DNA of 64,000 nt from an uncultured bacterium. Lineage in GTDB: Bacteria; Edwardsbacteria; AC1; EtOH8. The translations under genes were made by a program, and so were the position numbers. The notes beneath the pieces are model-generated. The model was not told the origin of the DNA, did no database searches, and worked only from the letters and a program-made list of their open reading frames with translations. Numbering within the stretch: position 1 is the stretch's first letter; each line of letters begins with the position of its first letter. Location: assembly GCA_963780225.1 (NCBI GenBank), contig CAWAAX010000006.1, forward strand, positions 18,136-82,135, written 5' to 3'. Positions 5,286-63,656 of the stretch are shown piece after piece.

Positions 5286-5297
5286 AGCTTTTTATTT

Positions 5298-5395
5298 AAC
5301 CACAGAAAGCACAAAGGGCACAAAAAATTTCTTTCTATATTTCTCAAGTGGTTTTTAAATCGTGATCCTATGTGATTTATGTGCATTTTGTGGTT
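5298..5395. repeat. Gene-less inverted-repeat hairpin of the CACRAAR family
   Basis: The left arm aaccacagaaagcacaaagggcacaaaa (5298-5327) is complementary to the right arm tgtgatttatgtgcattttgtggtt (5371-5395). The right arm is nearly identical to the right arm at 8836-8857. Confidence 0.6.
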
Positions 5396-5429
5396 AATTA
5401 AGGTAATCGGTAAAGGTGTTGGTTGAAAA

Positions 5430-6168: not shown

Positions 6169-6200
6169 TTATCCGCAGATTACGCAGATTGCACAGATTT
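6169..6200 (+). promoter_or_regulatory. TTATCCGCAGATT plus three 9-bp tandem CAGATTnnn repeats (DnaA-box-like core)
   Basis: ttatccgCAGATTacgCAGATTgcaCAGATTtt. Related copies lie at 11254-11277 and 23437-23459. Confidence 0.4.
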
Positions 6201-6284
6201 TATTTCCGTATCTTTCCTATAGCATGTAATTACAATGTAATTACATAAAATTATTTGATTATTTCATATTAAGACCAAAGAACC

Positions 6285-7517
6285 ATGATCAAAAGCATCA
6301 AAGGCGGCAAAGCCTGGCCGCACAAGAATTTCATCTTCGATCAGCCGATCGAAGCCTTGACGGCCCCCAAGGCGCTGGCCATCACATTATGGCACGGGGG
6401 GCGGGCCGTGGTGGCCAAGGGCGACCAGCTCAAGGCCAATGCGCAGGTGGGCTTCGATAATGCCGGACTGCCGGTGTTCACCGGGCTGGCCGGCAGGGTT
6501 ACCAGCGTGGCGGATTTTCCGGACCTGGTGGCCCGGCCCACGGAATTTGATTTCCCCCGGACCACGGTGTTCATAGAGACCGAGCCGGACCAGCCCGCCC
6601 GGGAGCCGGTGTTCGAACCCTGCCCCCGGTTCTGGAAACTTTCCAAGGCCGAACTGGCCGACCGGGTCTTTAAGGCCGGGGTGGCCGATCTGCGGAAGGA
6701 CGATCTGGAGAAGTACCTGATCTTCGACGGGCTGGACCTGGAACCGCCGTTGTCAACCAATGTCCGTCTGTTGAAGGAACGGCCCCAGGAACTTATCGAA
6801 GGCATGCGGATAGTGATGCAGATCCACAGCTCCACCCGGGCCAGGCTGGTGCTGTCATCCCGGATGAAGGCGCTGATCGCCGATCTCAAGTCTCTGCTGG
6901 CCAGCGCGGTCAACATCTCCATAGAAAAGGTCGAGCCGAAATACCCCCAGCAGAACGGAAAACTTGTCAGGCAGACTGTCTATCGGAGCCAATCCGCGGC
7001 CATCTACGGAATGGAGGCCCTGCTTAACGTCCGGCGGGCGGTGGTGCTGGGCCAGCCGCTGGCCACCAAGTTCTGCACCCTGTGCGACGACACCAAGGGC
7101 CAGAAGCGCCTGGCCGAGGTTTACATCGGCGCCAGCGCCGCCGAAACGCTTAACCTAAGGCCCCAGGATTACTCCAACCTGAAGCTGATATCCGGAGGCC
7201 TGCTCAGCGGTACCTGTCATTACAGCATCCAGCTGCCGGTGGACCGGAATACTTCCGGGCTGATGTTCTACCGCAATCCGCCGCTAAAAGAAAACCATCC
7301 CTGCATCAACTGCGGGCAGTGTCTGGCCATCTGTCCGGCGGGGCTGGCCCCGGCCCGGATATTTCCCCTGGTCCGCGACGGGCAAACTGAAGAACTGGCC
7401 CGGTTGAAGCCGGAAAACTGCCTGGAATGCGGGCTCTGCACTTTCATCTGTCCCGGAGGACTGTTGTTGTCGCACCAGATAAAAGTGGGTAAAATGATAC
7501 TGGAGGGCAAACTGTGA
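6285..7517 (+). CDS. RnfC-like protein (RnfC-type N-terminal fold plus two C-terminal 4Fe-4S clusters); the canonical NADH/FMN-binding glycine motif was not seen
   Basis: 'KVEPKYPQQNGKLV' corresponds to the RnfC 'PTKYPSGGAKQL' region. 'CINCGQCLAICPAG' and 'CLECGLCTFICPGG' are the two cluster motifs. Confidence 0.5.
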   Translation: MIKSIKGGKAWPHKNFIFDQPIEALTAPKALAITLWHGGRAVVAKGDQLKANAQVGFDNAGLPVFTGLAGRVTSVADFPDLVARPTEFDFPRTTVFIETEPDQPAREPVFEPCPRFWKLSKAELADRVFKAGVADLRKDDLEKYLIFDGLDLEPPLSTNVRLLKERPQELIEGMRIVMQIHSSTRARLVLSSRMKALIADLKSLLASAVNISIEKVEPKYPQQNGKLVRQTVYRSQSAAIYGMEALLNVRRAVVLGQPLATKFCTLCDDTKGQKRLAEVYIGASAAETLNLRPQDYSNLKLISGGLLSGTCHYSIQLPVDRNTSGLMFYRNPPLKENHPCINCGQCLAICPAGLAPARIFPLVRDGQTEELARLKPENCLECGLCTFICPGGLLLSHQIKVGKMILEGKL

Positions 7518-8368: not shown

Positions 8369-8415
8369 AAATTGTCGGGCCTGGGTGGTAAATTATGAAT
8401 CAATAAATTAATTTA

Positions 8416-8857
8416 CCACAAAAAGCACAAGGAACACATAAAATGACGGATAACGAAGTATTGCGACTATGTGATATTGTTAGGCAGACGGCCTTTGTTC
8501 TTCATACCTATTTACGGAACGGCCATTTGGAAAAGGTATATGAAAACGGATTAACCCATCGTCTTCGTAAGGCAGGAATAAAGGTCGAACAGCAGCACCC
8601 TTTAAAGGTTTTTGACGAAGATGGAACCATTCTGGGGGAGTACTTCGCAGACCTGTTAATAGAAACGGAACTTATCGTCGAACTTAAGGTCTGCAAGGCA
8701 ATAGCAGATGAGCACCTGTCCCAAGTATTCGGATATTTACGCGCCACAGGGCAGCGACATGGATTATTAATTAATTTTGGATCGCAACAAATTCAATTTA
8801 AGAAATTGGTTTTGTAGGTATGGCGTTAATTTTGCGATTTATGTGCTTCTTGTGGTT
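8416..8857. repeat. Matched inverted-repeat pair enclosing a GxxExxY gene
   Basis: The left arm ccacaaaaagcacaaggaacacataaa (8416-8442) ends 1 bp before the ATG. The right arm gatttatgtgcttcttgtggtt (8836-8857) lies 19 bp after the stop. Arm cores ccacaaRaagcaca...taaa are complementary. Confidence 0.6.
8443..8817 (+). CDS. GxxExxY family protein (PD-(D/E)XK-like small protein), paralog 1
   Basis: 'LEKVYENGL...GEYFADLLIETELIVELK...' matches the GxxExxY pattern. It is paralogous to the ORFs at 18126 and 27504. Confidence 0.8.
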   Translation: MTDNEVLRLCDIVRQTAFVLHTYLRNGHLEKVYENGLTHRLRKAGIKVEQQHPLKVFDEDGTILGEYFADLLIETELIVELKVCKAIADEHLSQVFGYLRATGQRHGLLINFGSQQIQFKKLVL

Positions 8858-8880: not shown

Positions 8881-8909
8881 TTGACAACCAGAGGGAAAAT
8901 TGGTAGAAT
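8881..8909 (+). promoter_or_regulatory. Sigma70-like promoter upstream of recA
   Basis: TTGACA (8881-8886), a 17-bp spacer, then TAGAAT (8904-8909). Confidence 0.55.
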
Positions 8910-10057: not shown

Positions 10058-10162
10058 ATTCAGAAGGCAAAATAAAATAACTTGCAATAACTGAGATTAA
10101 CCGGATGGATGTGCTAATCATTTAACATGCAGAATGTAAATTCCAAATTGTAAATCTGTAAA

Positions 10163-11224
10163 TTGAAGAATTGCATCCAGTGTCTTTTGCCGGAGAGCGC
10201 ACCGGGCATCAGCTTTGATGATTCCGGGATCTGCAACTACTGCCGGACATACAAGAAGACCGAGCTTAACGGCGAGGAGGCCCTGTTAAGGATCCTTGAC
10301 CGCCAGCGCCGCCGGGGCGGAAAGTACCAGTGCCTGGTGCCATTGAGCGGCGGCCGTGACAGCACCTTTGCCCTGCTGAAGATGGTCCGAGATTACGGTC
10401 TGACTGCTTTGGCGGTGAATTATCAGAATCCTTTTACTTCACCCGAAGCTGCTGCGAATATTCGGCAGGCCACCGAAAAACTGGGGGTGGAACTGGTGAG
10501 CTTTGGTCTAAAGCCGGGTTTGCACCAAATGACACTCAAGAAGAACCTGGAGGCCTGGCTCAAAAGGCCGTCGGCGGCGCTGGTTCCGATAATCTGCAGC
10601 GCCTGCCACAACATGTGGCTGCCGATCATGCAGATCGCCAAGAAACACGATATCCATTGCATAGTCACCGGGCGCAACCCCTACGAGGAGGTCTCGTTCA
10701 AACGCCGCCTGCTGGGGGTCAGCCCCGACGAGGACATCAGGAATGTCTATCTAAAGAACCTCGGAGGAATAGTCAAGGAGGCGGCCAAGAACCTGTCCTA
10801 TTTCTCGCCCCAAACCCTGCCGGTGATGATCAAGGGGCATTTCTTCGGCAGTCCCTATGCTTTGGGAACCAGGATCTACGGCCGCGGCATCGAAATGGCT
10901 GACCTGTTCTTTTACCTGCCCTGGAACGAATCTGAAGTCATGTCCCGGATCCAAAACGAGTTGGGCTGGCAAAGCCCCAAAGAGCAGGGCAACACCTGGC
11001 GCTTCGACTGCAGGGTTTCGCACCTGCGGGATCTGATGTACCAGAAGACCATCGGGATGACCGAGCGCCAGGAGCTTTACGCCCGGCTGATCCGCGAGGG
11101 GTTGATATCCAAACAGGAAATTGGAAACCGGCTGCCGGTGGAGAATGCCATCCATTATGACAAGATTGAGGCCCTGTTGGACGAAGTGGGCATAAGGGAC
11201 AGGTCTTACCTAAGACAGGAGTGA
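10163..11224 (+). CDS. N-acetyl sugar amidotransferase (PP-loop ATPase, WbuX/TIGR03573-like), polysaccharide biosynthesis
   Basis: It has the N-terminal Cys cluster 'CIQCLLPESAPGISFDDSGICNYC' and the PP-loop 'SGGRDS'. The start codon is TTG. Confidence 0.6.
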   Translation: MKNCIQCLLPESAPGISFDDSGICNYCRTYKKTELNGEEALLRILDRQRRRGGKYQCLVPLSGGRDSTFALLKMVRDYGLTALAVNYQNPFTSPEAAANIRQATEKLGVELVSFGLKPGLHQMTLKKNLEAWLKRPSAALVPIICSACHNMWLPIMQIAKKHDIHCIVTGRNPYEEVSFKRRLLGVSPDEDIRNVYLKNLGGIVKEAAKNLSYFSPQTLPVMIKGHFFGSPYALGTRIYGRGIEMADLFFYLPWNESEVMSRIQNELGWQSPKEQGNTWRFDCRVSHLRDLMYQKTIGMTERQELYARLIREGLISKQEIGNRLPVENAIHYDKIEALLDEVGIRDRSYLRQE

Positions 11225-11253
11225 ACCAAATCTCTTATTTACCAAGGTTGTCC

Positions 11254-11314
11254 TTATCCACAGATTAACGCAGATTGTCACCAATTATATTCATAATCAA
11301 TCTGTGTAAATCTG
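11254..11314. promoter_or_regulatory. TTATCCACAGATTAACGCAGATTG (exact DnaA-box consensus TTATCCACA) with an inverted partner CAATCTGTGTAAATCTG
   Basis: The direct copy is at 11254-11277 and the inverted partner at 11298-11314. Both lie in the amidotransferase/MIF intergenic region. Confidence 0.45.
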
Positions 11315-11417
11315 AGAAATCGTTCGGCTAACGCTCACGACAGCGTCTGCGGATTAAAAAACCACGGGGCAATTTGTCTGGATGACTTCATATGAGAACC
11401 TGAACGGAGGCGCAAAC

Positions 11418-11829: not shown

Positions 11830-11916
11830 GCCACTAAGGCACAAAGACACAAAGGGTATTAAAAATAGTACCAAGCGCGATAAATAATTTTCTTGGAGCC
11901 TTGGTGTCTTTGTGGC
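11830..11916. repeat. Gene-less inverted-repeat hairpin of the CACRAAR family
   Basis: gccactaaggcacaaagacacaaagg (11830-11855) is complementary to ccttggtgtctttgtggc (11899-11916). It uses the same octamer units (aaagacac, taaggcac) as the arms flanking the GxxExxY gene at 27504. Confidence 0.6.
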
Positions 11917-13634: not shown

Positions 13635-14276
13635 ATGTCGCCTAAAAACAATATTAACCCAACGCCTGTAACAGTTGAGAATAAAATAGAATTGCCAAAA
13701 CAAAATAATGGTATGGCATTTTGGGCTTTGGGAATTTCAGTGATATCACTTATAATAAGTAGTCTTTCCACTTATTGGATTGCGTACCCAAATTACAGTT
13801 TGAAAATTATCGATGCCAATTTATGTTTTAATGTGAAGGCCCTGTATGATACAACTTATTTAGACTCAAATTATGTGGAGTGTAAATTTTATAATGATGG
13901 CAATAGAGCTGTAACAGTAAAAGATTTTCGCTTTTACCTATCCGATAAAAATGATTCCATGTTGTTCGTTTTTCAAGATGACGTTGTTTGCCCAAAACAA
14001 ATAGAACCTGGTGATTATGCCGAAAGTATAGTAAAACTGTCTTTCATAAGGGTATATAACCCACCACCACAGCAAATCACAAAGATGAAATATCGTTTAC
14101 CTTATAAAAATTACAGCAGTTGGAAAATGTTATCCGATTCATTTCGCATGGGCCAAGCAAGTTTACCCTTAAAACGGGAAATAGAATTTAATATTAAAAT
14201 ACATTATGCCGGGAATAAAGAGCTTAAGTATAAACGATCAATTTCATGTATTTGGCCAATTCCTATAGAAGATTAA
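13635..14276 (+). CDS. Hypothetical membrane-anchored protein in an AT-rich island
   Basis: It has one N-terminal TM helix, no recognisable domain, and local base composition far more AT-rich than its neighbours. Confidence 0.4.
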   Translation: MSPKNNINPTPVTVENKIELPKQNNGMAFWALGISVISLIISSLSTYWIAYPNYSLKIIDANLCFNVKALYDTTYLDSNYVECKFYNDGNRAVTVKDFRFYLSDKNDSMLFVFQDDVVCPKQIEPGDYAESIVKLSFIRVYNPPPQQITKMKYRLPYKNYSSWKMLSDSFRMGQASLPLKREIEFNIKIHYAGNKELKYKRSISCIWPIPIED

Positions 14277-17290: not shown

Positions 17291-18049
17291 ATGATCTACC
17301 AACAACTGCTGAAAACCGCCAAGCAAAAGGGCTCGAATTTCCTGGTCCTTTTGGACCCCGACAAGTGCAAAAAACAGGACGCGGCCAAGATCGGCCAGGC
17401 CTTGAACGACGCCGGGGCCGATGGCATCCTGTTCGGCACCAGCCTGCTGATGTCCAACCAGATCGACGACACCATCAAGGCCTTAAAGCAGAACTTCAAA
17501 CAGCCGGTGATCATATTCCCCGGCAGCGCCTACCAGGTCTCGCCGCACGCCGATGCCATCCTGTACCTGTCGCTGGTCTCGGGCCGCAATGCGGAACTAT
17601 TGATCGGTGAGCAGGTCAAGGCCGCGCCCATGCTGAAAGCCTCGGGCCTGGAGGTGATCCCCACCGGCTACATGTTGATCGAGTCCGGCAAGCTGACCTC
17701 GGCCAACTACATGAGTCACACCATGCCCATCCCCCGGGACAAGTCCGACATCGCCATGGCCCACGCCCTGGCCGCCCGGATGCTGGGGATGAAGCTGATC
17801 TACATGGACGCCGGCAGCGGCGCCCAGCAGAGCGTCCCAGAGGAGATGATCGCCGGGGTGGCCAAATATGCCGAGCTTCCCGTTGTGGTGGGAGGCGGCA
17901 TCAAAACGCCCGAGGACGCCGGGGCCAAGGCCCGGGCCGGGGCCGCCGCGGTGGTGGTGGGGAACATTTTGGAGAAGAAGGGCAACATCAAGACGGCGGC
18001 GGATTTCGCCAGGGCTATTCACTTCAGGGCGAAAACAAACCGGGGCTAA
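17291..18049 (+). CDS. Geranylgeranylglyceryl/heptaprenylglyceryl phosphate synthase family protein (PcrB/GGGPS)
   Basis: 'LVLLDPDK...ADGILFGTS...IIFPGS...LIYMDAGSGA...VVVGGGIKT' follows the GGGPS/PcrB TIM-barrel pattern. A GGAGG RBS precedes the ATG. Confidence 0.7.
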   Translation: MIYQQLLKTAKQKGSNFLVLLDPDKCKKQDAAKIGQALNDAGADGILFGTSLLMSNQIDDTIKALKQNFKQPVIIFPGSAYQVSPHADAILYLSLVSGRNAELLIGEQVKAAPMLKASGLEVIPTGYMLIESGKLTSANYMSHTMPIPRDKSDIAMAHALAARMLGMKLIYMDAGSGAQQSVPEEMIAGVAKYAELPVVVGGGIKTPEDAGAKARAGAAAVVVGNILEKKGNIKTAADFARAIHFRAKTNRG

Positions 18050-18545
18050 CCACGGAAACACGGAATTTATGAAAACACGGAAACATATAAAATGATTTGT
18101 TTGATTACGTTAGGTGTGTTTATATATGAGTATAGTAAGATCTGACCATTTGGAATTAGAAGAATTAACAGGGAATATTATTTCTTGCGGAATAGAAGTC
18201 CATAAAAAACTAGGTCCCGGATTTCTGGAATCGCTATATGAATCTGCTTTGCTGGTAGAACTTCAAAAAAGAGGCTTGCATACCACAAGTCAAAAGGAGA
18301 TCAGGGTATTTTATGACGGATTTGAAATTGGCGTACACCGGCTGGACATTGTCGTAGAGAATAAAGTTATTGTTGAACTTAAAGCGGTCGCTGAACTTGA
18401 CCAATGCCATAAAGCACAGTTGCTGTCATATCTCAAGGCTAGTCATTTAAAAATTGGGTTACTGTTAAATTTTTCTAAAAATATTCTCCAGGTGAAAAGG
18501 ATGGCATATTGATTCCCAGAATTCCTCATTCAGTGTTTCCGTGGT
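18048..18545. repeat. Matched inverted-repeat pair enclosing a GxxExxY gene
   Basis: The left arm aaccacggaaacacggaatttatgaaaacacggaaacatataaa (18048-18091) is complementary to the right arm cagtgtttccgtggt (18531-18545). The core is accacggaaacac. Confidence 0.6.
18126..18512 (+). CDS. GxxExxY family protein, paralog 2
   Basis: 'HKKLGPGFLESLYESAL...IVVENKVIVELKAV' is paralogous to 8443 and 27504. The ORF-track start at 18114 is GTG; the ATG at 18126 is the more likely start. Confidence 0.8.
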   Translation: MSIVRSDHLELEELTGNIISCGIEVHKKLGPGFLESLYESALLVELQKRGLHTTSQKEIRVFYDGFEIGVHRLDIVVENKVIVELKAVAELDQCHKAQLLSYLKASHLKIGLLLNFSKNILQVKRMAY

Positions 18546-23436: not shown

Positions 23437-23459
23437 TTATCCGCAGATTTAGCAGATTA
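23437..23459 (+). promoter_or_regulatory. TTATCCGCAGATTTAGCAGATTA intergenic motif, third copy
   Basis: It shares the core with 6169 and 11254 and lies between maf and mtnA. Confidence 0.35.
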
Positions 23460-27475: not shown

Positions 27476-27922
27476 GCCACAAAGACACTAAGGCACGAAA
27501 ATCATGAATTATCAACCGCTATCAACAGTAGAAGAAGAGCGGGCAAAGAAAATCGTAGATGCCGCATATGCAGTGCATAAAAAACTGGGTCCGGGGTTGC
27601 TGGAAAAAGTATACGAGGTATGTTTTTGGCATGAATTGTCTAAACGGGAATTAAGGTACCAAAGGCAAGTTGATGTACCGATTGTTTATGACGGTATAAC
27701 GTTTGATGAAGGACTATGTTTAGATGTCCTGGTGGAAAACAGCATCATCTGTGAATTGAAAGCCGTAGATGAGATGAATCCAGTCTGGGAAGCACAAATA
27801 CTGAGCCATTTAAAACTAACTGGCAAACGCCTTGGATTTCTCATCAATTTTAATCTGTCAGTTATCAAAAACGGTATTAAACGATTTATTGTATAAACTT
27901 GGTGACTTAGTGTCTTTGTGGC
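27476..27922. repeat. Matched inverted-repeat pair enclosing a GxxExxY gene
   Basis: The left arm gccacaaagacactaaggcacgaaaatc (27476-27503) abuts the ATG. The right arm cttggtgacttagtgtctttgtggc (27898-27922) lies 2 bp after the stop. The 17-bp core gccacaaagacactaag is perfectly complementary. Confidence 0.7.
27504..27896 (+). CDS. GxxExxY family protein, paralog 3
   Basis: 'HKKLGPGLLEKVYEVCF...LDVLVENSIICELKAV' matches the GxxExxY pattern. Confidence 0.8.
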   Translation: MNYQPLSTVEEERAKKIVDAAYAVHKKLGPGLLEKVYEVCFWHELSKRELRYQRQVDVPIVYDGITFDEGLCLDVLVENSIICELKAVDEMNPVWEAQILSHLKLTGKRLGFLINFNLSVIKNGIKRFIV

Positions 27923-36570: not shown

Positions 36571-36593
36571 GGGTTTGGTTAGAATTCCGCCCC

Positions 36594-36838
36594 AAGCTTC
36601 GGACCGCCCCCCTGCCCCCTCCGTTGCGGAGGGGGAGGGGAGTGTCCCTCTCCACATTGGAGAGGGACAAAGGGAGAGGTCAAAAGCTTCGGACCGCCCC
36701 CTCGTTCCCCCTCCGTAGCGGAGGGGGAATAGGTTGTGTGAATAGTTATGTGTTGATATGTTTGATGATGTAAATAAAACTGATGACGAAATCCCTCTCC
36801 ACAATGGAGAGGGGGAGGGGAGAGGTCGAACCAGGCCA
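36594..36838. repeat. GC-rich mosaic palindromic repeat modules between the MTase gene and the DUF559 gene
   Basis: aagcttcggaccgcccccctgccccctccgttgcggagggggag... occurs twice, and atccctctccacaatggagaggg extends into the 5' end of the DUF559 ORF. Confidence 0.7.
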
Positions 36839-37219
36839 GCCCACCCCAAGGGCAGCACCGGGATTATCAGGCTGCAAAAAGTGAAAAGCAGCAAATTAGA
36901 GTTGGCCAAATATTTCAGACAGCATATGACACTTGGCGAAAGGTGCTTCTGGAATATGACCCGCAAGAACCAGGTCAACGGTTACCGATTCAGACGCCAG
37001 CAGGTGATCCACGGCTTTGTTGCCGATTTCTACTGCAACCAGATAAACCTGGTGGTCGAGATAGACGGCGGCATCCACGAACAGCAGAAGGACTACGACA
37101 AGCTTCGCACAAAAATAATTAACCAGTACGGCATCCGGGTCATACGTTTTACCAACGAAGAAATGATGGATAAAAGCGATTGGGTGTTGGAGAAGTTGAA
37201 GGAAGCTGCGAGAAGTTGA
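36758..37219 (+). CDS. DUF559 (Vsr-like endonuclease-fold) protein; the 5' boundary is uncertain because the ORF's first ~25 codons are repeat sequence
   Basis: 'KLELAKYFRQHMTLGERCFWNMTR...GYRFRRQQVIHGFVADFYCNQINLVVEIDGGIHEQQKDYDKLRTKIINQYGIRVIRFTNEEM' is the DUF559 pattern. Confidence 0.7.
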   Translation: MFDDVNKTDDEIPLHNGEGEGRGRTRPAHPKGSTGIIRLQKVKSSKLELAKYFRQHMTLGERCFWNMTRKNQVNGYRFRRQQVIHGFVADFYCNQINLVVEIDGGIHEQQKDYDKLRTKIINQYGIRVIRFTNEEMMDKSDWVLEKLKEAARS

Positions 37220-37223
37220 TTGC

Positions 37224-37374
37224 CTAAAGCTTCGGACCGCCCCCTCGTTCCCCACTTTCGCTTGTCGTAGTGTTCTGCCTTGCTCAGTGCAGGCACTCCG
37301 TTGCGGAGGGGGAGGACAGACATCCCTCTCCACATTGGAGAGGGATAAAGGGAGAGGTCGAACCCCGCAGGACG
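37224..37374. repeat. GC-rich mosaic palindromic repeat modules downstream of the DUF559 gene
   Basis: ctaaagcttcggaccgccccctcgttccccactttcgcttgtcgtagtgttctgccttgctcagtgcaggcactccgttgcggagggggag...catccctctccacattggagagggataaagggagaggtcgaacc. Confidence 0.7.
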
Positions 37375-37482
37375 GCCCACCAACCCCCTTGCATTTTCAC
37401 CCATCATTTGCGATAATAACGCAAGCCATAATAGACGCCTTTGGCGTCTATTATGCTTTAACATTAAACCACGGAGAAGGTC

Positions 37483-37877: not shown

Positions 37878-38300
37878 GCACCAAAACCTAAATCCTAAAC
37901 CCTAAACAAATTCCAAATCATAAGCCATAAACCCAAAACAGTTCGTTGTTTTGAGTTTGGCGAATTTATATTTGTTTAGAATTTAGATACTTGCTTCCAT
38001 CGCCGGGCAGTAGGGGCGAAGCACTAAATCCGAAATCCGAAATCCTAAACAATCCCAAATTATCAAAACCTAAAACTCAAAACTGTTTCGTACTTTGTAT
38101 TTAAACAATTAGAATTTGTTTTGAGTTTAGATACTTACTTCTATCGCAGGGCAGCAGGGGCGAAGCCCTAAATCCGAGATACGAAATCCTAAACAATCCC
38201 AAATGACCAAAACCTAAAACTCAAAACGGTTTCGTGCTTTGTATTTAATAATTAGAATTTGTTTTGAATTTAGATATTAGTATTTAGAGATTTAACCAGT
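37878..38300. repeat. Three tandem copies of a ~145-bp highly structured AT-rich repeat immediately upstream of mutL
   Basis: Units start near 37878, 38021 and 38166. Each contains the inverted repeat aaaacctaaaactcaaaac / gttttgagtttag, (g/t)aaatcc microrepeats, and a G-rich tail ctatcgcagggcagcaggggcgaag. Confidence 0.75.
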
Positions 38301-46100: not shown

Positions 46101-47979
46101 AGCAGAGCGGAAACTATCGGAATCGGAATTGAAATACCAACAGGTGCTGGAAGGTGTAGCCGAGGGCATTTATCGCACCACGCCGGAGGGAAAAATACTG
46201 CTGGCCAACCAGGCTATAGTAAAAATGTTGGGATATACAACTTTGGAAGAATTAATGAACCGGGATATCAGAAGAGAAGGGTATATCGATCCCGTTTCTC
46301 ACCTCAACTTTATAGAAGAGATGAATAAAAAAGGCCAGGTAAAGAATTGGGTTAGCGAATGGAGAAAGAAAGACGGCTCAATCATGGTGGCCAGGGAAAA
46401 TGCCCATGCGGTCAAGGATCAATCGGGTAAAATCGTTTACTATGAGGGGACGGTTGAGGATATAACGGAGCAGAAAATGGCTGAGCGGAAACTGGCTGAA
46501 TCGGAGCGCAAATACAGCCAGATATTTGAAGACATCGTGGAAGGCATTTACCGGACCACACCCGAGGGGCATGTATTGCTGGCCAACCCGGCCTTGCTGA
46601 GAATGCTGGGCTTTGAAAGCCATGAACAGTTGGTAAAGTTAAATCTGAACAAAGCAGGCTATGTAGATAGCAGCGCCCGCCGCAGGTTCAAGGAACAGAT
46701 GGAACGGGACGGTCAGGTGTTAGGTTTTGAAGCCAAATGGAAGCGTAGCGACGGTAAAATAATAGTAATCAGCGAAAACGCCCGGACGGTCAAGGACGAT
46801 CAGGGCAAGGTGCTTTATTACGAGGGCACTATTGAGGACATAACCGAAAAACAAAAAGCCGAAGAAGATCTTTTAAACGAAAAAAATAAGCTGTCCGACC
46901 TGTTCCGGGTCAGCCTGCAGGTGGCCCGGGCAGGCAACATCCAGAAAAAACTGGACCTGACCATGGATGGCATATACGGTACTGGGTTGTTTGCCAGGGC
47001 GGTGCTGGTGCTCAAAAACGAAGAGGGATGCAACAGCCATATCGCTCATTTTGGCATGACCTCCAAGGAGGTTTCAGCGATTCTAAAGTCCGGTCCGGCT
47101 CAGGCCGAAAAACTGGAAAAAATATTCAATAAAAAATTCCGCTACAGTAATTCGTATTTTATTCCCCATGATTCTCCGGGGATTGATTTTTCCATTAAAC
47201 TGATAAACAAACAATATCAGCCCATCGGAGACTGGCATCCCGAAGATGCTCTGCTGGTGCCCTTGGTGGTCAAGGACAAGCATATCGGCTATTTGACGGT
47301 GGATGAGCCGATCGACGGAAAGATCCCCAGCCTGGAGATAGTCCGGTTGTTGGAGCTGTTCTCCTATCAGGCGGCGGTGGCCATAGATAATATCAGGCTC
47401 TATAGTGATCTGGAGCGGAGTTATTACAGCACCCTTAAGGCTTTTGTAGCGGCCATGGACGCCAAAGATCCATACACCAAGGGCCATTCCGAGAATGTCC
47501 GTTACCATGCATTAACTATCGCCCGCCAGCTTAAACTTCCTGAGGAGCAGGTAAAACTGATAGATTTCAGTTCGTTACTGCACGACATAGGCAAGTTGGC
47601 CATTCGGGACGAGATATTGACTAAACCCAGCCTGCTGTCCGACCACGAATACCAGGAGATAAAACTGCATCCGGTGATCGGCAGCCGTCTGGTGGCCGAG
47701 GTGGAATCATTGATAAAGGTAGCTCCCATAATCCACAGCCATCACGAGCATTACGACGGGTCGGGATATCCCCAGGGCATCAAGGGAGACCAGATTCCCC
47801 TGGAAGCCAGGATCATTGCGGTAGCAGATGCCTTTGAAGCCATGACCTCTGACCGGCCCTACCGTAAGGCCTTCGACTTGAAGGTGGCCATCAAGCGGCT
47901 GCAGGATGCGGCCGGAACCCAGTTTGATAATGAGATCGTAAAAGTATTCATTAAACTTCACCAGGAAACCCATGGATAG
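43117..47979 (+). CDS. Giant sensor c-di-GMP phosphodiesterase: periplasmic sensor-TM-HAMP, about nine PAS/PAC domains, a GAF domain, and a C-terminal HD-GYP domain
   Basis: There are repeated PAS cores. The C-terminal 'HDIGKLAIRDEIL...HHEHYDGSGYPQG' is the HD-GYP signature. Confidence 0.8.
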   Translation: MKLSLKIGLITAAVAGSIAVSVSLNHSFWEGKAWRTELRSHAATMADMLAFTVQESVLKNDFSALEQNIIKFSQRLEIAYAVVYDNSATPLAATGGTASRQAIELYQENPKKHKRDVHKHVIDGQDIYEMLIPVSVDGRDWGMLQVGFYENKILAIYHRTNIFNYLILLLGLGISMAAGWLVARYLGEPIEALMEGADQLVKSNYDHRINIKRKDELGRLVSAFNQMAGTIRQDMVELGSRNLQLLKAQERQLWLARIAEQVGEGVAVTDLEGMVTFVNHSWADMHGYAPEQLLGKHFSIFHSHAQLAREVLPFNQKVMGQGLNAGIVGHIKKDRTVFYTETTMTLLKNYDGEAVGFIGVAHDITDQKKAQEDLKKERDVIKSIFAATPDAVIITDLNGNFIEANDKAIELLELNSRDELLGKNFSAFIAPDDRSLALHNFQKTLDYGGVSNIQLDIVTTKNGQFPLEYSTRLLYSSEGRPTNLVAVGRNIALRKKSELALADSEQRYRTLAESSPDIIFVADRDGTIKYANNKATSIAGLAEGQANGRNISEFFEQGMNDKQKEQLLGVFTSGSTAHYELPTPIGGRELWLETWMVPLTDQTGSVTEVMVLCRDLTSRKRMEEKLLISEQKYRELADSLPQTVFGCDGKGRITYFNKIGYQQSGYEPADIENGLNITDLLIPEDRQRALQNIDGRMQGRPGQNQEYQALRKDGTTFPINIYTSLVIEDGLISGLRGVIVDVSEIKKSEQVLKESEARFRSLAEASPSGIFAYREKFIYANPACQTLTGYSPDELFKMNFWELIHPDHRDMVKQRGLARQRGDNVPSNYEFKMIRKDGQVRWVDFSGTMTQFDGQLSGLGMTLDITERKGIEEILQASEAQYRTTIDSIGDAIHVVDRELNILLVNAVFKEWCHRLGLIKEPSGCNVYEVCPFLSPQVRQEYQSVFETGQPSITQDENIISGKSLFTETRKIPILEGGRTTKVITVIRDITEEKEAERKLSESELKYQQVLEGVAEGIYRTTPEGKILLANQAIVKMLGYTTLEELMNRDIRREGYIDPVSHLNFIEEMNKKGQVKNWVSEWRKKDGSIMVARENAHAVKDQSGKIVYYEGTVEDITEQKMAERKLAESERKYSQIFEDIVEGIYRTTPEGHVLLANPALLRMLGFESHEQLVKLNLNKAGYVDSSARRRFKEQMERDGQVLGFEAKWKRSDGKIIVISENARTVKDDQGKVLYYEGTIEDITEKQKAEEDLLNEKNKLSDLFRVSLQVARAGNIQKKLDLTMDGIYGTGLFARAVLVLKNEEGCNSHIAHFGMTSKEVSAILKSGPAQAEKLEKIFNKKFRYSNSYFIPHDSPGIDFSIKLINKQYQPIGDWHPEDALLVPLVVKDKHIGYLTVDEPIDGKIPSLEIVRLLELFSYQAAVAIDNIRLYSDLERSYYSTLKAFVAAMDAKDPYTKGHSENVRYHALTIARQLKLPEEQVKLIDFSSLLHDIGKLAIRDEILTKPSLLSDHEYQEIKLHPVIGSRLVAEVESLIKVAPIIHSHHEHYDGSGYPQGIKGDQIPLEARIIAVADAFEAMTSDRPYRKAFDLKVAIKRLQDAAGTQFDNEIVKVFIKLHQETHG

Positions 47980-50900
47980 AAGTAAAAATAACAAAACCGA
48001 CCCCGTTCTAAGGACCGGGCGGGTTACAAAAGCCAGATCTGTAAAAACGCCGGACCGGGGGAGTTCTTCCGGGGCCCAGAGCCTGGAAAAAAGGCTGGAG
48101 GAGATCTCGGTGCTAAGCCAGATTGCCCAATCCATGGCCCGGGTAATGAATCTGGAAGAACTTTGGCCCCGGCTACACCGCGAAGTGAGCCGTTTGCTCG
48201 ATGCCCGGAATTTTTACGTGGCTTTGTGGCACCACCGGCAGGGAAAGGCAGTAGAATTCATTTATGAGATCAAAGACGGAAAACGTCTGCCAAAATCCCA
48301 AAAATCACGGGCCCGCGGACTGACCGAACTGGTGCTGGAATCGGGTAAACCACTGCTGTTAAAACATGAAGAAATAAAAAAAAGAGGCCGTCCTCTAAAA
48401 AACGGCGACCAGCCGGCTCTTTCCTGGTTGGGAGTTCCCATTCGGATCAGGGAGCATACCATGGGAATGATAGCTGTTCAGAATTACCAGCAGACCGGAC
48501 TCTACAACCTGAACCATCAGGAATTGTTAGTATCCATTGCCGGTTATGCGGCAGTAGCTTTGGAAAATTCCCGGCTGCATACGGCCGCCCTGCAAAAAGC
48601 CAAAGAAGCCGAAGCTCTGCATCAGTTGAGCGAAGCCGCAGTAACCGATGCCAATCTGGACGAACTGCTTCAGAGGATACCTTTGTTGATCAAAGAAACC
48701 TTTGGCTATTTGACTTGCGCCATCCTGCTTTCCGATCAGGAAGACAAATACTTGTATCTTAAGGCCGCAGTGGGATATCGGGCCAAAGTAATAAGGGATA
48801 CCCGCATCGCCATCGGTCGAGAAGGAATAACCGGCTGGGTAGCATCCCAGGGAAAAACCATGTATGTTCCTGATGTCAGCAAAGAGAAACGTTATTTGGA
48901 AGTAGAGAGCAACTGCCGTTCGGAAGCAGCGTTGCCTCTCAAATTCCGGGATAAGGTCATAGGGGTATTGGATATTGAGAGTTCCCGATTGGATGGATTC
49001 AGCCCCTATGACATCCGGCTTTTGGAAAATTTTGCTAACCAGGCAGCGGCAGTCATCCAGAAAATACGGCTGGAACAACTGGCCCATCAGAAAATCAAAG
49101 AGCTCGCTACTCTATCCGATATCTTTCAGGGATTTACGGTCAGTATGGGCCTGGGTGCGTTGACCGGAGAACTGACGCGGAAAATAGGCCAGGCTATGGA
49201 AAGCGATAAATGCCTGATCGCCTTGTATGATGCCGTAAGCGGTCAGTTATCTGGACTGCCCCAGGGCTTCATGACCAAGAAACTTTCTGATAAACAAAGA
49301 AAAATATTCAGAGATAAGGACGAATTAAGCCGGGCTATGCGCTTTTATTTAGATCAGGGCGGGGCGGCCACCATGGTCTTTAAGACGGGACAGCCTTATT
49401 TTACCAACCAAGTCCGAACTGATTCCAAGATCATTCAAAAACTGGCCAAAACTTATGAGATCAATAAACTCCTGATACTACCGCTGAAATCCCGGGATAA
49501 AATGCTGGGATTGATATATGTAGCCGACAAAGAAGGTGGCCGGGATTTTGACCGCAATGACGCAAAGATGGGAGAGGTTTTAGCCAGCCAAGCTGCATTA
49601 CTTTTGGACAACGCCATGCTGTACCAGAAAATGGATATGGGTTTAAAGCAGCTAACTACCCTTTACCAGATGAGTCAGGCGGTGATCAATGCTACCGATG
49701 AGAACGAAGTGATGATGCTGAGTCTCAAAATCATCGGTGACATTATCCCCGCCGATACTATTACCCTGATGTTGATCGATCCGTCCACCGGCGATTTGGT
49801 AATTAAAGCTGCCCGGGGACTTTCGGATGAAATTGAAAAACAGCCTAGGCTCAAATCGGGCCAGGGATTGGCCGGCTGGGTAACCGAGCATATGGAGCCG
49901 GTGCTGACTGCCGACCTGGGCAGCGATCCTAGGTTTGTTTTACTGCCCCAGAAAGAGAATCTGGGCGCCTCCATCCTGGTTCCGTTGCAGGCCAAGGCCC
50001 AGCTGCTGGGAGTTTTGAACATCAATAATTTCCGGGGTAATCCCCAAGAATTTACTTTGGAACAGTTGCAGTTGGCCCAGATCATGGCAAGCAGTATTGC
50101 CATGGCACTGGAAAGGACCGAGCTGGTGATAGCCTTGGACAGCCGGGCCTCGGTTCAGAAATCACTGCTGGAAACCAGCCGCCTTTTGCTGGGTTCTCTT
50201 CAAATCGAAGATGTGCTTCCCAAGATCTCGCAGGAGATCGAGCGCTTGATTCCATTTGAGAGGCTGGCCATCTATAAGGTGGATTGGGCAACCAAAAACC
50301 TTTCACCGATGATGGCGTTGGGCCCATATCAGGATGAGATAATGGCCGATACTTCGTTTTCCATGGATACAAGCATAGTTGGGAATATTGCTCAAACCGG
50401 CCGGCCGGAGATCATCCCCGATGCTCTCCGCGATGTCCGGACCAGACATATAGCCGGAACCGACGACGACTCGGAATCCTTATTGGTGGCTCCTCTTTTG
50501 GTAAATGGACGCAGTGAGGCAATGTTGTTAATCGGGCGCCCGGTGGGTCTTGGTTTTACTTCCCGGGAATTGGAGATAGCTTCGCTGTTCGCCAACCAAG
50601 CGGCGGTAGCCTGGAAGAATGCCAGCATGTTCGGGGAAATTAACCGCAACCAGGGGGAACTTTCCGAAGCCAATAGCCGGCTTAATTTGGCGCTAAAACG
50701 ACAGATTGAGGTGAATACCGAGCTTTCCACCATGCAGTATCTTTCCAGCACCATCCTTTCGTCACTAAAACTGGAAGAGATTCTTTCGGTAATAGTGGAG
50801 GGCATCAGGACCAGCCTTGGTTTTGACCGGGTATTGATCAGCAGCGCCGAGTCTGATGGCCTTAATCTGATCCACCAGGCGGCCGCAGGAATTCCTCCGG

Positions 50901-52753
50901 AAGAGTTCCAGGAAATGCAGCAAAACAAATTACCCTTGTCCGACGTTATGCCATTAATGCGGTCAGATTTCCGGATCAGCAATTCCTTCTTAGCCCCGGC
51001 TCCGGGCCAGGAACAGGTAAAACCCAAGTCTGGAGATCATCCGAAAGATTCCGGCCTTTGGCAAGAGGGCAGCCGGATTTTAACCCCGCTCTACGCCAAG
51101 AACCGCCGGATGCTGGCGTTGATTCAGATTGAGAAACCGTCGGCTGGCAGGGTTCCCGATAAAAAGAAAATCCGGTCATTGGAAGCTTTTGCCAACACCG
51201 CAGTGCTGGCCATCGAAAACGCCACTCTGTATCTGGATGCCCAGAATCGAATTACCGAGCTTTCGGTGCTTTATGAGATCGGCACCATCATCTCCTCGGT
51301 GCTGGAAAAGCACCAGCTGCTGGAAAGCGTGGTCAACCTGATTAGAGAAAAACTTCATTACCTGAAAGTGGCCATTTTTGAAGTGGAGCCCATCACCGGC
51401 AGCCTGTTCGTTGGCGGACAGAGCGGATACGAGCAAGAGTTGGAGCAGGTCCATTTTACGGTGGGCGGCAACAGCGTGGTGGGGTGGGTGGCGGAAAAAG
51501 GGCAGCCCCTGATAATTCCGGATGTTCGTCAGGAACCGCTCTATGTGGTCGGTGATCAACGGGTGCTTTCGGAGATAGCCATTCCCATCAAACGCGAGGA
51601 GCAGGTCCTGGGGGTGATGAGCATCGAGGACGATAAGTTGGACGCTTTCGACCAATCGGATGCTCAGCTTTTATCCACTTTGGCCAACCAGGTGGCAGTG
51701 GCCATGGATAACGCCCGGTTGTATGGCCAGGCACAACACCTCTATCAGGAAGCCCAGCGCAACGTTCGCGACCTTTCGGCCCTGCATAGCGTGGGCACCA
51801 CAGTCAGCTCCACCCTGCAACTGCAGGATCTGCTGCAGCAGGTTTGCAGCATTCTTAAAGACACTTTCGGTTACGCCAAAATATCTATTCTGCTGACCGA
51901 TTTCCTGCGGGATGAACTGGAACTGATGGTCAGCCTGGGGTATCCAGATAGCGTCAAGGAGACCGGCCGGAGGGTGAAGATAGGCAGCGAAGGTATCACC
52001 GGTAAAGCCGGTCTGACCGGAGAAGCAATAATCGTCAACGATGTCAGCAAGGAACCGTCTTATATCTGTATAGACCAATGCACAAGATCGGAGATGGCGG
52101 TTCCATTAAAACTCAAAGGCCGGATCATTGGTGTGATCAACGTAGAGAGTGATGCCATTGGGGATTTTGACCGGATAGACATGAATCTGTTGAACACTTT
52201 GGCCACCCAAATATCGGTGGCGGTGGAAAACGCCAGACTGTACCAGGAAACCGAGCAGCTGGCGGTAACCGATGGCCTGACCGGAGTGAACAATCATCGT
52301 TACTTCCAAAGCTTTTTTGAGCGGGAGCTCAACCGGGCCAAACGTTACAATCATCCGTTGGCTTTGATTATGCTGGATATCGACCACTTCAAAAAATTCA
52401 ACGACAAATTCGGCCATCCGGTGGGAGACCTGGTGCTTAAAACAGTGACCGAGATACTCAAACAGCAGGCCCGGGAGGTGGATCTGGTGGCCCGTTATGG
52501 GGGTGAGGAGTTTATGTTGGTGCTTCCCGAAACCGGGAAAAAAGAAGCGGTGATGCTGGCCGAACGGATCAGGCTGGCGGTTAAAAAATATCCACTGACG
52601 GATGCTCAGAACAAGCCGCTGCCCAATATCACGGTTAGCCTAGGAGTCTCCAGTTATCCGGAGAACGGCTCGGAGAAGGAGGAGATGATTGACTATGTGG
52701 ACAAATGTCTTTATAAGGCCAAAGCCGGCGGCCGCGATCTGGTAAAGCATTAG
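47972..52753 (+). CDS. Giant sensor diguanylate cyclase: about eight to nine tandem GAF domains and a C-terminal GGDEF domain
   Basis: C-terminal 'GLTGVNNHRYF...LIMLDIDHFKKFND..GH..GD..L...RYGGEEFMLVLPET' is the GGDEF signature. It overlaps the upstream gene by 8 bp. Confidence 0.8.
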   Translation: MDRSKNNKTDPVLRTGRVTKARSVKTPDRGSSSGAQSLEKRLEEISVLSQIAQSMARVMNLEELWPRLHREVSRLLDARNFYVALWHHRQGKAVEFIYEIKDGKRLPKSQKSRARGLTELVLESGKPLLLKHEEIKKRGRPLKNGDQPALSWLGVPIRIREHTMGMIAVQNYQQTGLYNLNHQELLVSIAGYAAVALENSRLHTAALQKAKEAEALHQLSEAAVTDANLDELLQRIPLLIKETFGYLTCAILLSDQEDKYLYLKAAVGYRAKVIRDTRIAIGREGITGWVASQGKTMYVPDVSKEKRYLEVESNCRSEAALPLKFRDKVIGVLDIESSRLDGFSPYDIRLLENFANQAAAVIQKIRLEQLAHQKIKELATLSDIFQGFTVSMGLGALTGELTRKIGQAMESDKCLIALYDAVSGQLSGLPQGFMTKKLSDKQRKIFRDKDELSRAMRFYLDQGGAATMVFKTGQPYFTNQVRTDSKIIQKLAKTYEINKLLILPLKSRDKMLGLIYVADKEGGRDFDRNDAKMGEVLASQAALLLDNAMLYQKMDMGLKQLTTLYQMSQAVINATDENEVMMLSLKIIGDIIPADTITLMLIDPSTGDLVIKAARGLSDEIEKQPRLKSGQGLAGWVTEHMEPVLTADLGSDPRFVLLPQKENLGASILVPLQAKAQLLGVLNINNFRGNPQEFTLEQLQLAQIMASSIAMALERTELVIALDSRASVQKSLLETSRLLLGSLQIEDVLPKISQEIERLIPFERLAIYKVDWATKNLSPMMALGPYQDEIMADTSFSMDTSIVGNIAQTGRPEIIPDALRDVRTRHIAGTDDDSESLLVAPLLVNGRSEAMLLIGRPVGLGFTSRELEIASLFANQAAVAWKNASMFGEINRNQGELSEANSRLNLALKRQIEVNTELSTMQYLSSTILSSLKLEEILSVIVEGIRTSLGFDRVLISSAESDGLNLIHQAAAGIPPEEFQEMQQNKLPLSDVMPLMRSDFRISNSFLAPAPGQEQVKPKSGDHPKDSGLWQEGSRILTPLYAKNRRMLALIQIEKPSAGRVPDKKKIRSLEAFANTAVLAIENATLYLDAQNRITELSVLYEIGTIISSVLEKHQLLESVVNLIREKLHYLKVAIFEVEPITGSLFVGGQSGYEQELEQVHFTVGGNSVVGWVAEKGQPLIIPDVRQEPLYVVGDQRVLSEIAIPIKREEQVLGVMSIEDDKLDAFDQSDAQLLSTLANQVAVAMDNARLYGQAQHLYQEAQRNVRDLSALHSVGTTVSSTLQLQDLLQQVCSILKDTFGYAKISILLTDFLRDELELMVSLGYPDSVKETGRRVKIGSEGITGKAGLTGEAIIVNDVSKEPSYICIDQCTRSEMAVPLKLKGRIIGVINVESDAIGDFDRIDMNLLNTLATQISVAVENARLYQETEQLAVTDGLTGVNNHRYFQSFFERELNRAKRYNHPLALIMLDIDHFKKFNDKFGHPVGDLVLKTVTEILKQQAREVDLVARYGGEEFMLVLPETGKKEAVMLAERIRLAVKKYPLTDAQNKPLPNITVSLGVSSYPENGSEKEEMIDYVDKCLYKAKAGGRDLVKH

Positions 52754-62990: not shown

Positions 62991-63656
62991 TCTCTCCAAA
63001 ACAAAAAACCCTCCCGCCTTGGCGGGAGGGTTTTTTGTTTTTATGCCGTGCCAGCGGAGGTATTCTATTTCATCAATTTCTTGGTGATGATGACAGAAAC
63101 CAGCGTCAAAACCAGCAGGGACATTACCACTATGATTATAACACTGACGAATTGTTTGGCCTGAACGCCGAAAGAATATTCCCAGACAAAACAGCAGGGC
63201 GTACCACAGGGCGATCCCGGGCAGGCCGTAAAGCAAAACCTTTTTAAAACTGTAGCCGGTCAACCCGGCGATCAAAAAGCCGAAGGAACGGCCGCCCGTT
63301 ACGGCCCGGTTCAAGGCCAGGATCAGGTTCCCATACTTAGCAAAATGGCCTTCCATCAACAGCAGCCTTGAGGGCGAAAGAAAAGGGCGGGGCTTGGCCA
63401 GAAAATAGTCCCGGCCTTTTTTGATTCCGATCCAATAAACCAGCAAGGCTCCCAAAGAACCTCCCAAAAACGCCGCCAGGAACCCGGGAAACCAGTGCAA
63501 CTGGCCTTGGCCCGCCAGTATGGCGCAAAAGATGACCACTACATCGCTGGGGGCCGGGGGAAAAATGCCTTCAAGAAAGGTGGCCGTAAATATGGTCAGG
63601 TAAGCCCACCAGCCGCCTTGGGAGGCCAGAGTATTGGCCAATTGTTCCATGCTCAT
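62970..63656 (-). CDS. DedA/SNARE-associated family membrane protein; the 3' end is uncertain because the ORF reads through the terminator hairpin
   Basis: 'LTIFTATFLEGIFPPAPSDVVVIF...' is the DedA pattern with multiple TM helices. Confidence 0.65.
   Translation of the reverse strand: MSMEQLANTLASQGGWWAYLTIFTATFLEGIFPPAPSDVVVIFCAILAGQGQLHWFPGFLAAFLGGSLGALLVYWIGIKKGRDYFLAKPRPFLSPSRLLLMEGHFAKYGNLILALNRAVTGGRSFGFLIAGLTGYSFKKVLLYGLPGIALWYALLFCLGIFFRRSGQTIRQCYNHSGNVPAGFDAGFCHHHQEIDEIEYLRWHGIKTKNPPAKAGGFFVLERLSHCVL
63009..63041. terminator. Strong bidirectional Rho-independent terminator
   Basis: ccctcccgcc-tt-ggcgggaggg, flanked by aaaaaa upstream and ttttttgttttt downstream. Confidence 0.8.

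Follow-up and report, generated by a model that had tools for sequence, protein, structure and literature searches.

The 64,000-nucleotide (nt) stretch of contig CAWAAX010000006.1 from an uncultured Edwardsbacteria genome (the window) carries three copies of a short intergenic repeat built of CAGATT-containing words. These three sites are probably copies of a small interspersed intergenic element, namely gene-less relatives of the cassettes that encode GxxExxY proteins of the PD-(D/E)XK fold, and would represent either non-autonomous derivatives or landing pads. On a wider scale, and with distinctly less confidence, we put forward the tentative proposal that GxxExxY genes (PF13366 / TIGR04256) and clade-specific inverted word repeats constitute a previously undescribed class of mobile elements. 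Such a class would comprise promoterless nuclease cassettes located between the genes of operons together with far more numerous gene-less hairpins, would span at least 13 phyla plus viral contigs, and would act by a mechanism distinct from that of REPIN-RAYT.

A CAGATT-word element was defined as at least two nCRCAGATT words at a spacing of 9-10 nt, preceded by an (A/G)TCC cap, in an intergenic position and with or without an inverted partner. Elements of this kind were found at 6169, 11254 and 23437, but not at 10134. Their parts are given below, with E values from a profile built on 72 arms from other genomes.

6169-6199, + strand: half-element TTATCCGCAGATTACGCAGATTGCACAGATT; TTATCC cap followed by three words at 9-nt spacing, 11 nt past the truA stop codon; profile E = 9e-12.
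11254-11276, + strand: left arm of the palindromic copy, TTATCCACAGATTAACGCAGATT; TTATCC cap, then ACAGATT, aac and GCAGATT, with 10-nt spacing; profile E = 1e-3.
11277-11297: loop of the palindromic copy; 21 nt, AT-rich, with no conserved content.
11298-11314, - strand: right arm of the palindromic copy, CAATCTGTGTAAATCTG; two words (CAGATTTACACAGATTG), the terminal unit being without a TCC cap; profile E = 0.38.
11346-11358, - strand: possible distal capped unit, TTAATCCGCAGAC; weak profile match at 11346-11356, E = 1.2.
23437-23458, + strand: half-element TTATCCGCAGATTTAGCAGATT; TTATCC cap followed by two words at 9-nt spacing, 14 nt past the maf stop codon; profile E = 2e-4.

The recurrence of the motif at these three intergenic places, first noticed in the initial annotation of the sequence, was confirmed. 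The string TTATCCRCAGATT has exactly three exact matches in the window, all on the + strand and all intergenic, and these start 11-30 nt past the stop codons of truA, a ThiI-like gene and maf, respectively. The pattern CAGATT-N2-4-CAGATT was observed five times, compared to 0.03 expected from 100 shuffles, and seven of the eight CRCAGATT words fall in the three array spacers, while only ~7% of the window is non-coding. The lone 7-mer GCAGATT was found at its expected frequency (10 observed, 9.9 expected); the signal is carried by the arrays. The arm profile recovered exactly the three arrays, the next matches being the right arm of the palindromic copy and then the unit at 11346, possibly the former right end of a longer element that has been interrupted.

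The copy at 11254 is palindromic, as had been annotated: its partner begins 21 nt downstream, and the predicted hairpin has a folding energy of -19 kcal/mol on the + strand (z = -5.4) and -22.3 kcal/mol on the - strand (z = -4.8). The half-elements at 6169 and 23437 have no inverted partner and do not fold beyond background (z = +0.7 and +0.5). The "weaker relative" annotated at 10134-10165 had to be discarded. This site contains one ACAGATT on the - strand, was missed by the arm profile and folds no better than its shuffles; it sits within an insertion of ~70 bp that is missing from two relatives.

Comparison of the arrays from other genomes established the anatomy of the repeat. The repeat unit is the 9-10-nt word nCRCAGATT, present in two to four copies per array and preceded by a (T/G)ATCC cap. 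Positions left free in the search were found to be non-random, the two bases before the second CAGATT being C in 93% and R in 96% of cases. Arrays picked without selection for TTATCC still begin with (A/G)TCC, and the sample of viral contigs, which was selected on TCC only, has the cap T-(T/G)-A-TCC. Conservation in the motif resides in TCC-RCAGATT-nCRCAGATT and not in the TTAT half of the DnaA box. The words are spaced by 9 nt in 222 cases and by 10 nt in 79 cases; the argument from a spacing of one helical turn, made in the initial annotation, is weakened by this period (9 nt in 222 of 304 spacings). In the genome stretches and the window together, 91 inverted pairs and 70 solo arrays were counted. 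In other genomes, inverted arms are separated by loops of 1-200 nt, some of which contain further palindromes of other words. One such locus (L042:3640-4065) consists of four nested palindromic modules, from the outside in: CAGATT arms, CACGAAGGCACAAAGACAC arms, CACGAATG arms and a GTCATTGCGAGCGAAG...CTCGCAATGAC core. The open reading frames (ORFs) of this locus gave no match to a known family.

The distribution of the motif was determined by a search for TTATCCRCAGATT-N3-4-CAGATT in a 596-Gb collection containing one genome per species. At least 120 stretches from about 13 phyla were obtained, compared to a chance expectation of ~17 for the whole collection, by our own estimate. The phyla among the matches listed were Planctomycetota, Verrucomicrobiota, Acidobacteriota, Chloroflexota, Nitrospirota, Pseudomonadota, Bacteroidota, Spirochaetota, Armatimonadota, Lentisphaerota, Calditrichota, Cyanobacteriota and Abyssobacteria. 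The window itself was assigned to candidate division TA06 on the basis of Maf homologs. At least 120 stretches of viral contigs also contained the motif. This distribution upholds the suggestion, already present in the initial annotation, that the motif is a short interspersed repeat. For non-coding DNA, it is unusual that a 19-nt motif stays nearly unchanged between unrelated phyla, and this calls for a common agent; the evidence presented below points to the GxxExxY family. The word strings retrieved only an irrelevant Buchnera genome announcement or primer matches from the full-text literature. The window had no Rfam match at the gathering threshold, and a relaxed threshold gave only sub-threshold generic hairpin models.

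Two matches of the search are mentioned separately. The match in a giant-virus metagenome-assembled genome (L157:6100-6340) was rejected as a false positive, being a long coding (GATTCCACA/GATTCTACA)n repeat that encodes Asp-Ser-Thr and is not intergenic. A 7.2-kb Oligosphaeraceae contig (L051) has ends (70-126 and 7064-7111) that are inverted copies of ~120 bp, including the CAGATT hairpin and its flank; these could reflect either a larger element or an assembly artefact.

The window also contains three GxxExxY cassettes and two gene-less hairpins composed of other words.

8415-8857, + strand: first GxxExxY cassette, gene at 8443-8817; inverted CACAAAAAG/CACAAGGAA arms at 8415-8442 and 8838-8857.
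18049-18545, + strand: second GxxExxY cassette, gene at 18114-18512; arms of inverted CACGGAAA words.
27476-27922, + strand: third GxxExxY cassette, gene at 27504-27896; bracketed by GCCACAAAGACACTAAGGCAC / GTGACTTAGTGTCTTTGTGGC.
5292-5401, + strand: gene-less hairpin of CACAGAAAG/CACAAAGG words upstream of truA; -27.6 kcal/mol, z = -3.5.
11830-11916, + strand: gene-less hairpin of CAC-AAAG/TAAGG words just upstream of recX; -29.5 kcal/mol, z = -3.8; absent from the relative L121.

The three GxxExxY genes (TIGR04256 / PF13366) are promoterless, lie between co-oriented housekeeping genes and are each associated with a different 8-9-nt word. Every GxxExxY gene examined was bracketed by inverted word arrays, and the two gene-less hairpins share their word type with the arms of the third cassette. 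The first cassette is absent from L121, and in the relative L124 the slot of the second contains an unrelated gene, which lacks arms. A near-consensus sigma-70-type promoter (TTGACA, 17 nt, TAGAAT, with TG) is located at 8881-8909, directly after the first cassette and upstream of recA.

Arms made of the CAGATT word were found around a GxxExxY gene in the Thiosymbion locus L057 (TTATCCGCAGATTACGCAGATTTCCGCAGATT ... TCTGCGTAATCTGCGGATTA). A metagenome search with the protein of this locus, based on peptide patterns situated outside the arms, yielded 30 loci. Among those encoding a protein at least 56% identical to the query, ~19 of 23 carry RCAGA(T/G) units, forward upstream of the gene and reverse downstream of it. 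These units were found in none of the four loci with an identity of at most 50%, which contain CAGGATT or CGAAAGA words instead. In a second clade, formed by homologs of the gene at 27504-27896 with 78-82% identity (from TA06, Deltaproteobacteria, Marinimicrobia and others), all loci have GCCAC-CAAGGCAC-AAAGNCAC words. Across phyla, the word type follows the GxxExxY clade and not the host. Since GxxExxY proteins from different phyla are ~80% identical, recent transfer is indicated; multiple transfers between divisions have been reported for PDDEXK_3 (PMC3424549). Beside an identical GxxExxY protein (loci L280, L282 and L283), the downstream arm contains two, three and one copies of GTGTCTTT, respectively, which points to a change in word number by slippage between strains.

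The D...ExK residues are invariant in alignments of GxxExxY proteins. The family is very large, with 7958 of 8000 candidates scored at E <= 1e-15, and in the literature it was encountered only within a superfamily catalogue, where its function is given as unknown. Neither of the two clades gave a GxxExxY match in viral contigs. At locus L284 (2751-3191), a four-helix 23S_rRNA_IVP gene (PF05635) with GGACGAAGGAAGAAGG / CTTCCGTCTTCCATCG arms shares an operon with a GxxExxY cassette, which lies two genes upstream of it.

According to the reading that we favor, the element is built of two inverted arrays of tandem 9-10-nt words around a loop of arbitrary sequence. The GxxExxY nuclease would act on the word arrays, or on a hairpin of single-stranded DNA, to copy or move them, and the number of words would change via slippage. 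In RNA, the paired arms would form an intercistronic stem, which might do little harm inside operons, by analogy with the intervening sequences of 23S rRNA that are excised by RNase III. The family is placed among the interspersed palindromic repeats with a cognate gene, and the likeness of its cap to a DnaA box is incidental. If the nuclease does mobilize or target the words, this would explain a common, unannotated component of intergenic DNA in environmental bacteria; the GxxExxY family would gain a function, and a type of mobile element that lives inside operons would be added to those known. In practice, the arrays should be masked before such genomes are searched for DnaA boxes, operators or terminators.

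Several results weigh against this interpretation. GxxExxY genes of the CAGATT clade are missing from the 64-kb window. Of the 42 loops with a length of 60-900 nt that separate inverted CAGATT arrays at genome and viral loci, a single one (L057) encodes a GxxExxY protein, and therefore the gene-less copies are not recent deletion products; no gene remnants were found in their loops. No clean junction of a movement event was seen. In 116 hairpins with both caps, a target-site duplication of 3-4 bp or more was not apparent, as direct repeats were not overrepresented at k = 4-5 and only slightly so at k = 3. The only clear excess in the flanks of these hairpins was a palindromic TA in ~20%, which is indistinguishable from an extension of the inverted repeat. 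No solved structure in the PDB and no defence family in PADLOC was matched by the GxxExxY proteins, their best match among phage families (PHROG) was a weak one (E = 8e-4) to an uncharacterised family, and the AlphaFold model was too poor to use (pLDDT 54). Between the arms, R/Y concordance is only 64-86% and the spacer base shows no covariation, and for this reason pairing is not the main constraint on the arms. The word itself is conserved beyond pairing, which leaves room for a sequence-specific binder. The link between word and gene could also have a different basis, either shared descent of gene and arms or homing of the genes into existing hairpins. Finally, two lineages have kept the array downstream of truA, possibly because of a host function.

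A rapid turnover of the arrays was seen among close relatives. In L123, with ~90% DNA identity, the spacer after the ThiI-like gene is 36 bp long and has no array, compared to 193 bp (11225-11417) with the hairpin in the window. In L121, recX directly follows the ThiI-like gene and the array is absent. The spacer between maf and mtnA in relatives L124-L127, in which Maf is 88-90% identical, comprises 486 bp of other word repeats without the CAGATT array. The truA array has an ortholog in L123, with three units that differ only at the R and n positions and with an indel of ~75 bp downstream. Because they are gained and lost among relatives of ~90% identity, the arrays are unlike conserved operators. 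Within the ~75-bp stretch missing from L123, the window contains a tandem palindromic word, TGTAATTACA ATGTAATTACA, at 6226-6247 upstream of an rnfC-like gene, which could be an operator or another word element.

The arrays showed no preference in relation to neighboring genes. The cap end faces a start codon in 77 cases and a stop codon in 74, with a median distance of 21.5 nt from the stop. Solo arrays are evenly divided between sense (11) and antisense (11), the spacer types match the background, and divergent spacers are not depleted. The adjacent genes are diverse and unrelated housekeeping genes. A Pfam scan of 147 small ORFs near arrays did not reveal a common cargo gene, PDDEXK_3 being found just once, and no Y1 gene was found beside CAGATT arrays. 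Neither promoter-like nor terminator-like matches were found at the arrays, and the sequence after the arm is GGATAA plus A/T, with no U-tract or T-run.

Among the alternatives, a host-beneficial RNA element survives best, although we consider it unlikely. According to this explanation, the hairpin would serve as an intercistronic stabilizer, a processing site or a terminator, and would have spread by selection and not by mobility. REP elements and the stems of 23S rRNA intervening sequences do act in such a manner (PMC4990558), the copy at 11254 folds well on both strands, and copies are located either ~20 nt or less from stop codons or immediately in front of ribosome-binding sites. However, non-folding half-elements make up two of the three copies in the window and 70 of the 161 elements elsewhere, the stem has no U-tract, and there is neither strand bias nor depletion in divergent spacers. 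The missing covariation of the spacer base tells against it as well, and selection for a stem would not yield the same word in 13 phyla. As a separate candidate, an intrinsic (Rho-independent) terminator was rejected, since there was no terminator-like match and no T-run and divergent spacers were not depleted. A perfect 21-bp inverted repeat at 62998-63041 (AAAACAAAAAACCCTCCCGCC / GGCGGGAGGGTTTTTTGTTTT) looks like a bidirectional intrinsic terminator and, judged by its sequence, appears to show that canonical terminators are in use in this genome. An integron attC site was also rejected on direct reading of the sequence, in which the arms are CRCAGATT words and the GTTRRRY core is absent.

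Repeated de novo origin in AT-rich spacers, through slippage during replication or the growth of palindromes, without any transfer or dedicated enzyme and with a likeness due to convergence, is improbable. It would account for the differences in word copy number among near-identical loci and for the many word types that have a C-R-C-purine-rich pattern in common. It is, however, very unlikely that 13 phyla would have converged on an identical 8-nt word together with a TCC cap. The word type tracks the GxxExxY clade across phyla, several types occur within one genome (three in this window), and the ~80% identity of GxxExxY proteins in different phyla reflects recent transfer.

A common regulator, possibly DnaA, had been proposed in the initial annotation. 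In this model, a strong box, TTATCCACA, would nucleate DnaA onto adjacent weak 9-mers, with a role in transcription control or titration. Conservation across phyla would follow from that of DnaA and its box, which extends throughout bacteria. The copy at 11254 does contain an exact TTATCCACA, the copies at 6169 and 23437 contain TTATCCGCA, and TTATCC ranks among the two most frequent caps across phyla. The AGAT inside the word also resembles AGATCT, which we take to be the "ATP-DnaA box" of Escherichia coli. This model nevertheless appears very improbable. In the sample unselected for TTAT, a strict box (TTATNCACA) was present at only 6 of 149 array ends (4%), and only one of the three window copies is strict. 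The commonest ends are TGATCCGCA and TTATCCGCA; position 7 of the box is G in the majority, positions 1-3 vary, and TGATCC, TTGTCC, CTATCC and CGATCC are common. The invariant core CRCAGATT and the inner 9-mers are not DnaA boxes, and the words follow one another with a 9-nt period and no spacer. The density in the window (4 arrays per 64 kb) would, by our own extrapolation, correspond to hundreds of copies per genome. Arrays occur in viral contigs and flank a clade of nuclease genes, they have no bias toward promoter positions or in orientation, and copies are gained and lost among close relatives. The cumulative GC skew rises almost monotonically across the window, which accordingly contains no origin. 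The regulator proposal was not supported, and DnaA may still bind some of the copies.

An operator of a lineage-specific transcription factor for the downstream rnfC-like, tautomerase-like and mtnA genes is scarcely credible. In other phyla, the genes next to the motif are unrelated, at two of the three sites the orthologous spacers of close relatives lack the motif, and there is no overall orientation bias. In favor of an operator, all three window arrays are on the coding strand, and the next start codon follows 85-142 nt downstream.

Compared with known systems, the family interpreted here as gene-less relatives of GxxExxY cassettes is nearest in its logic to REPIN-RAYT and to miniature inverted-repeat transposable elements (MITEs), and in cassette architecture to the intervening sequences of 23S rRNA, but it lacks the defining features of each. 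With REP/REPIN-RAYT systems it shares short, high-copy intergenic palindromes whose inverted doublets form hairpins, with many gene-less and few gene-containing copies, and a cognate gene that is flanked by its own repeat type, so that the repeat type tracks the gene. In contrast, the gene here is a GxxExxY gene of the PD-(D/E)XK fold and not a Y1 transposase gene, and the arms are tandem 9-nt words, the same across phyla, instead of a single GTAG-headed palindrome. A link to RAYT was examined and rejected: the repeat that surrounds the RAYT-like gene of the relatives (L126:633-1244, Y1_Tnp E = 6e-7) is another one, the classical REP GTAGGGGCAATTCATGAATTACCCCTAC. This gene occupies the variable slot between an HlyIII-like gene and alaS, and in two relatives (L126:633-1244 and L124:694-1278) the slot holds a RAYT-like Y1 transposase gene that is flanked by and contains GTAGGGGCAATTCATGAATTACCCCTAC. 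In the window, the same slot (13635-14276) contains an AT-rich ORF of 213 amino acids with no Pfam match.

Similarly to MITEs, the elements are non-coding and intergenic, differ in presence or absence among relatives, and have terminal inverted repeats in common with a gene-carrying element. Such sharing of terminal repeats was found here in that CAGATT arrays bracket the GxxExxY genes of the L057 clade; GxxExxY is not a known transposase. They differ from MITEs in that a target-site duplication was not detected, the size of 40-110 bp is much smaller, the repeats are tandem words of variable number, and the partner is without a known transposase.

The cassettes resemble the intervening sequences of 23S rRNA (S23p / four-helix-bundle ORFs) in being small selfish insertions, transferred horizontally, with a short ORF in stem-forming inverted repeats. 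A short ORF within inverted repeats was present in both the GxxExxY and the 23S_rRNA_IVP cassettes, and the CAGATT copies of the window have arms and no ORF. The stem of an intervening sequence is cut by RNase III and the host RNA still functions (PMC4990558). In contrast to these sequences, the elements described here are located between protein-coding genes and not in rRNA genes.

As in the DnaA-box clusters of oriC, datA, DARS and DnaA-regulated promoters, some caps are an exact TTATCCACA followed by phased repeats. The strict box is, however, in the minority, and the core, copy number, turnover, occurrence in viral contigs and link to a nuclease do not fit such clusters.

The heptamers of cyanobacteria known as short tandemly repeated repetitive (STRR) sequences, together with small dispersed repeats, are said to have been described by Mazel in 1990 and Elhai in 2008. 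They are reportedly very short tandem intergenic words, nested and situated at hairpin tips or arms, with suspected mobility. Their period is said to be 7 nt, compared to 9 nt here, with other words, and they are reported for one phylum. To our knowledge, no enzyme is known for them and no cognate gene has been reported.

Additional repeats are present elsewhere in the window. Three tandem units of ~144 bp at 37879-38290 are composed of mutually pairing short words (CTAAATCCTAAACCCTAAA, AAATCCGAAATCCGAAA and GTTTTGAGTTTAGAT). On the - strand these words read CGGATTT/AGGATTT, a variant of the CAGATT word, and the unit includes the plant-telomere-like CCCTAAA. The region 36590-37410 contains the repeated module AAGCTTCGGACCGCCCCC, the palindrome CCCCCTCCGTTGCGGAGGGGGA in three copies and TCCCTCTCCACATTGGAGAGGGA, also in three copies. 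Coding repeats were found at 5-373, where three 123-bp copies lie in tandem, and at 47355-52242, where eight repeats spaced by ~500 bp are located inside one very large gene.

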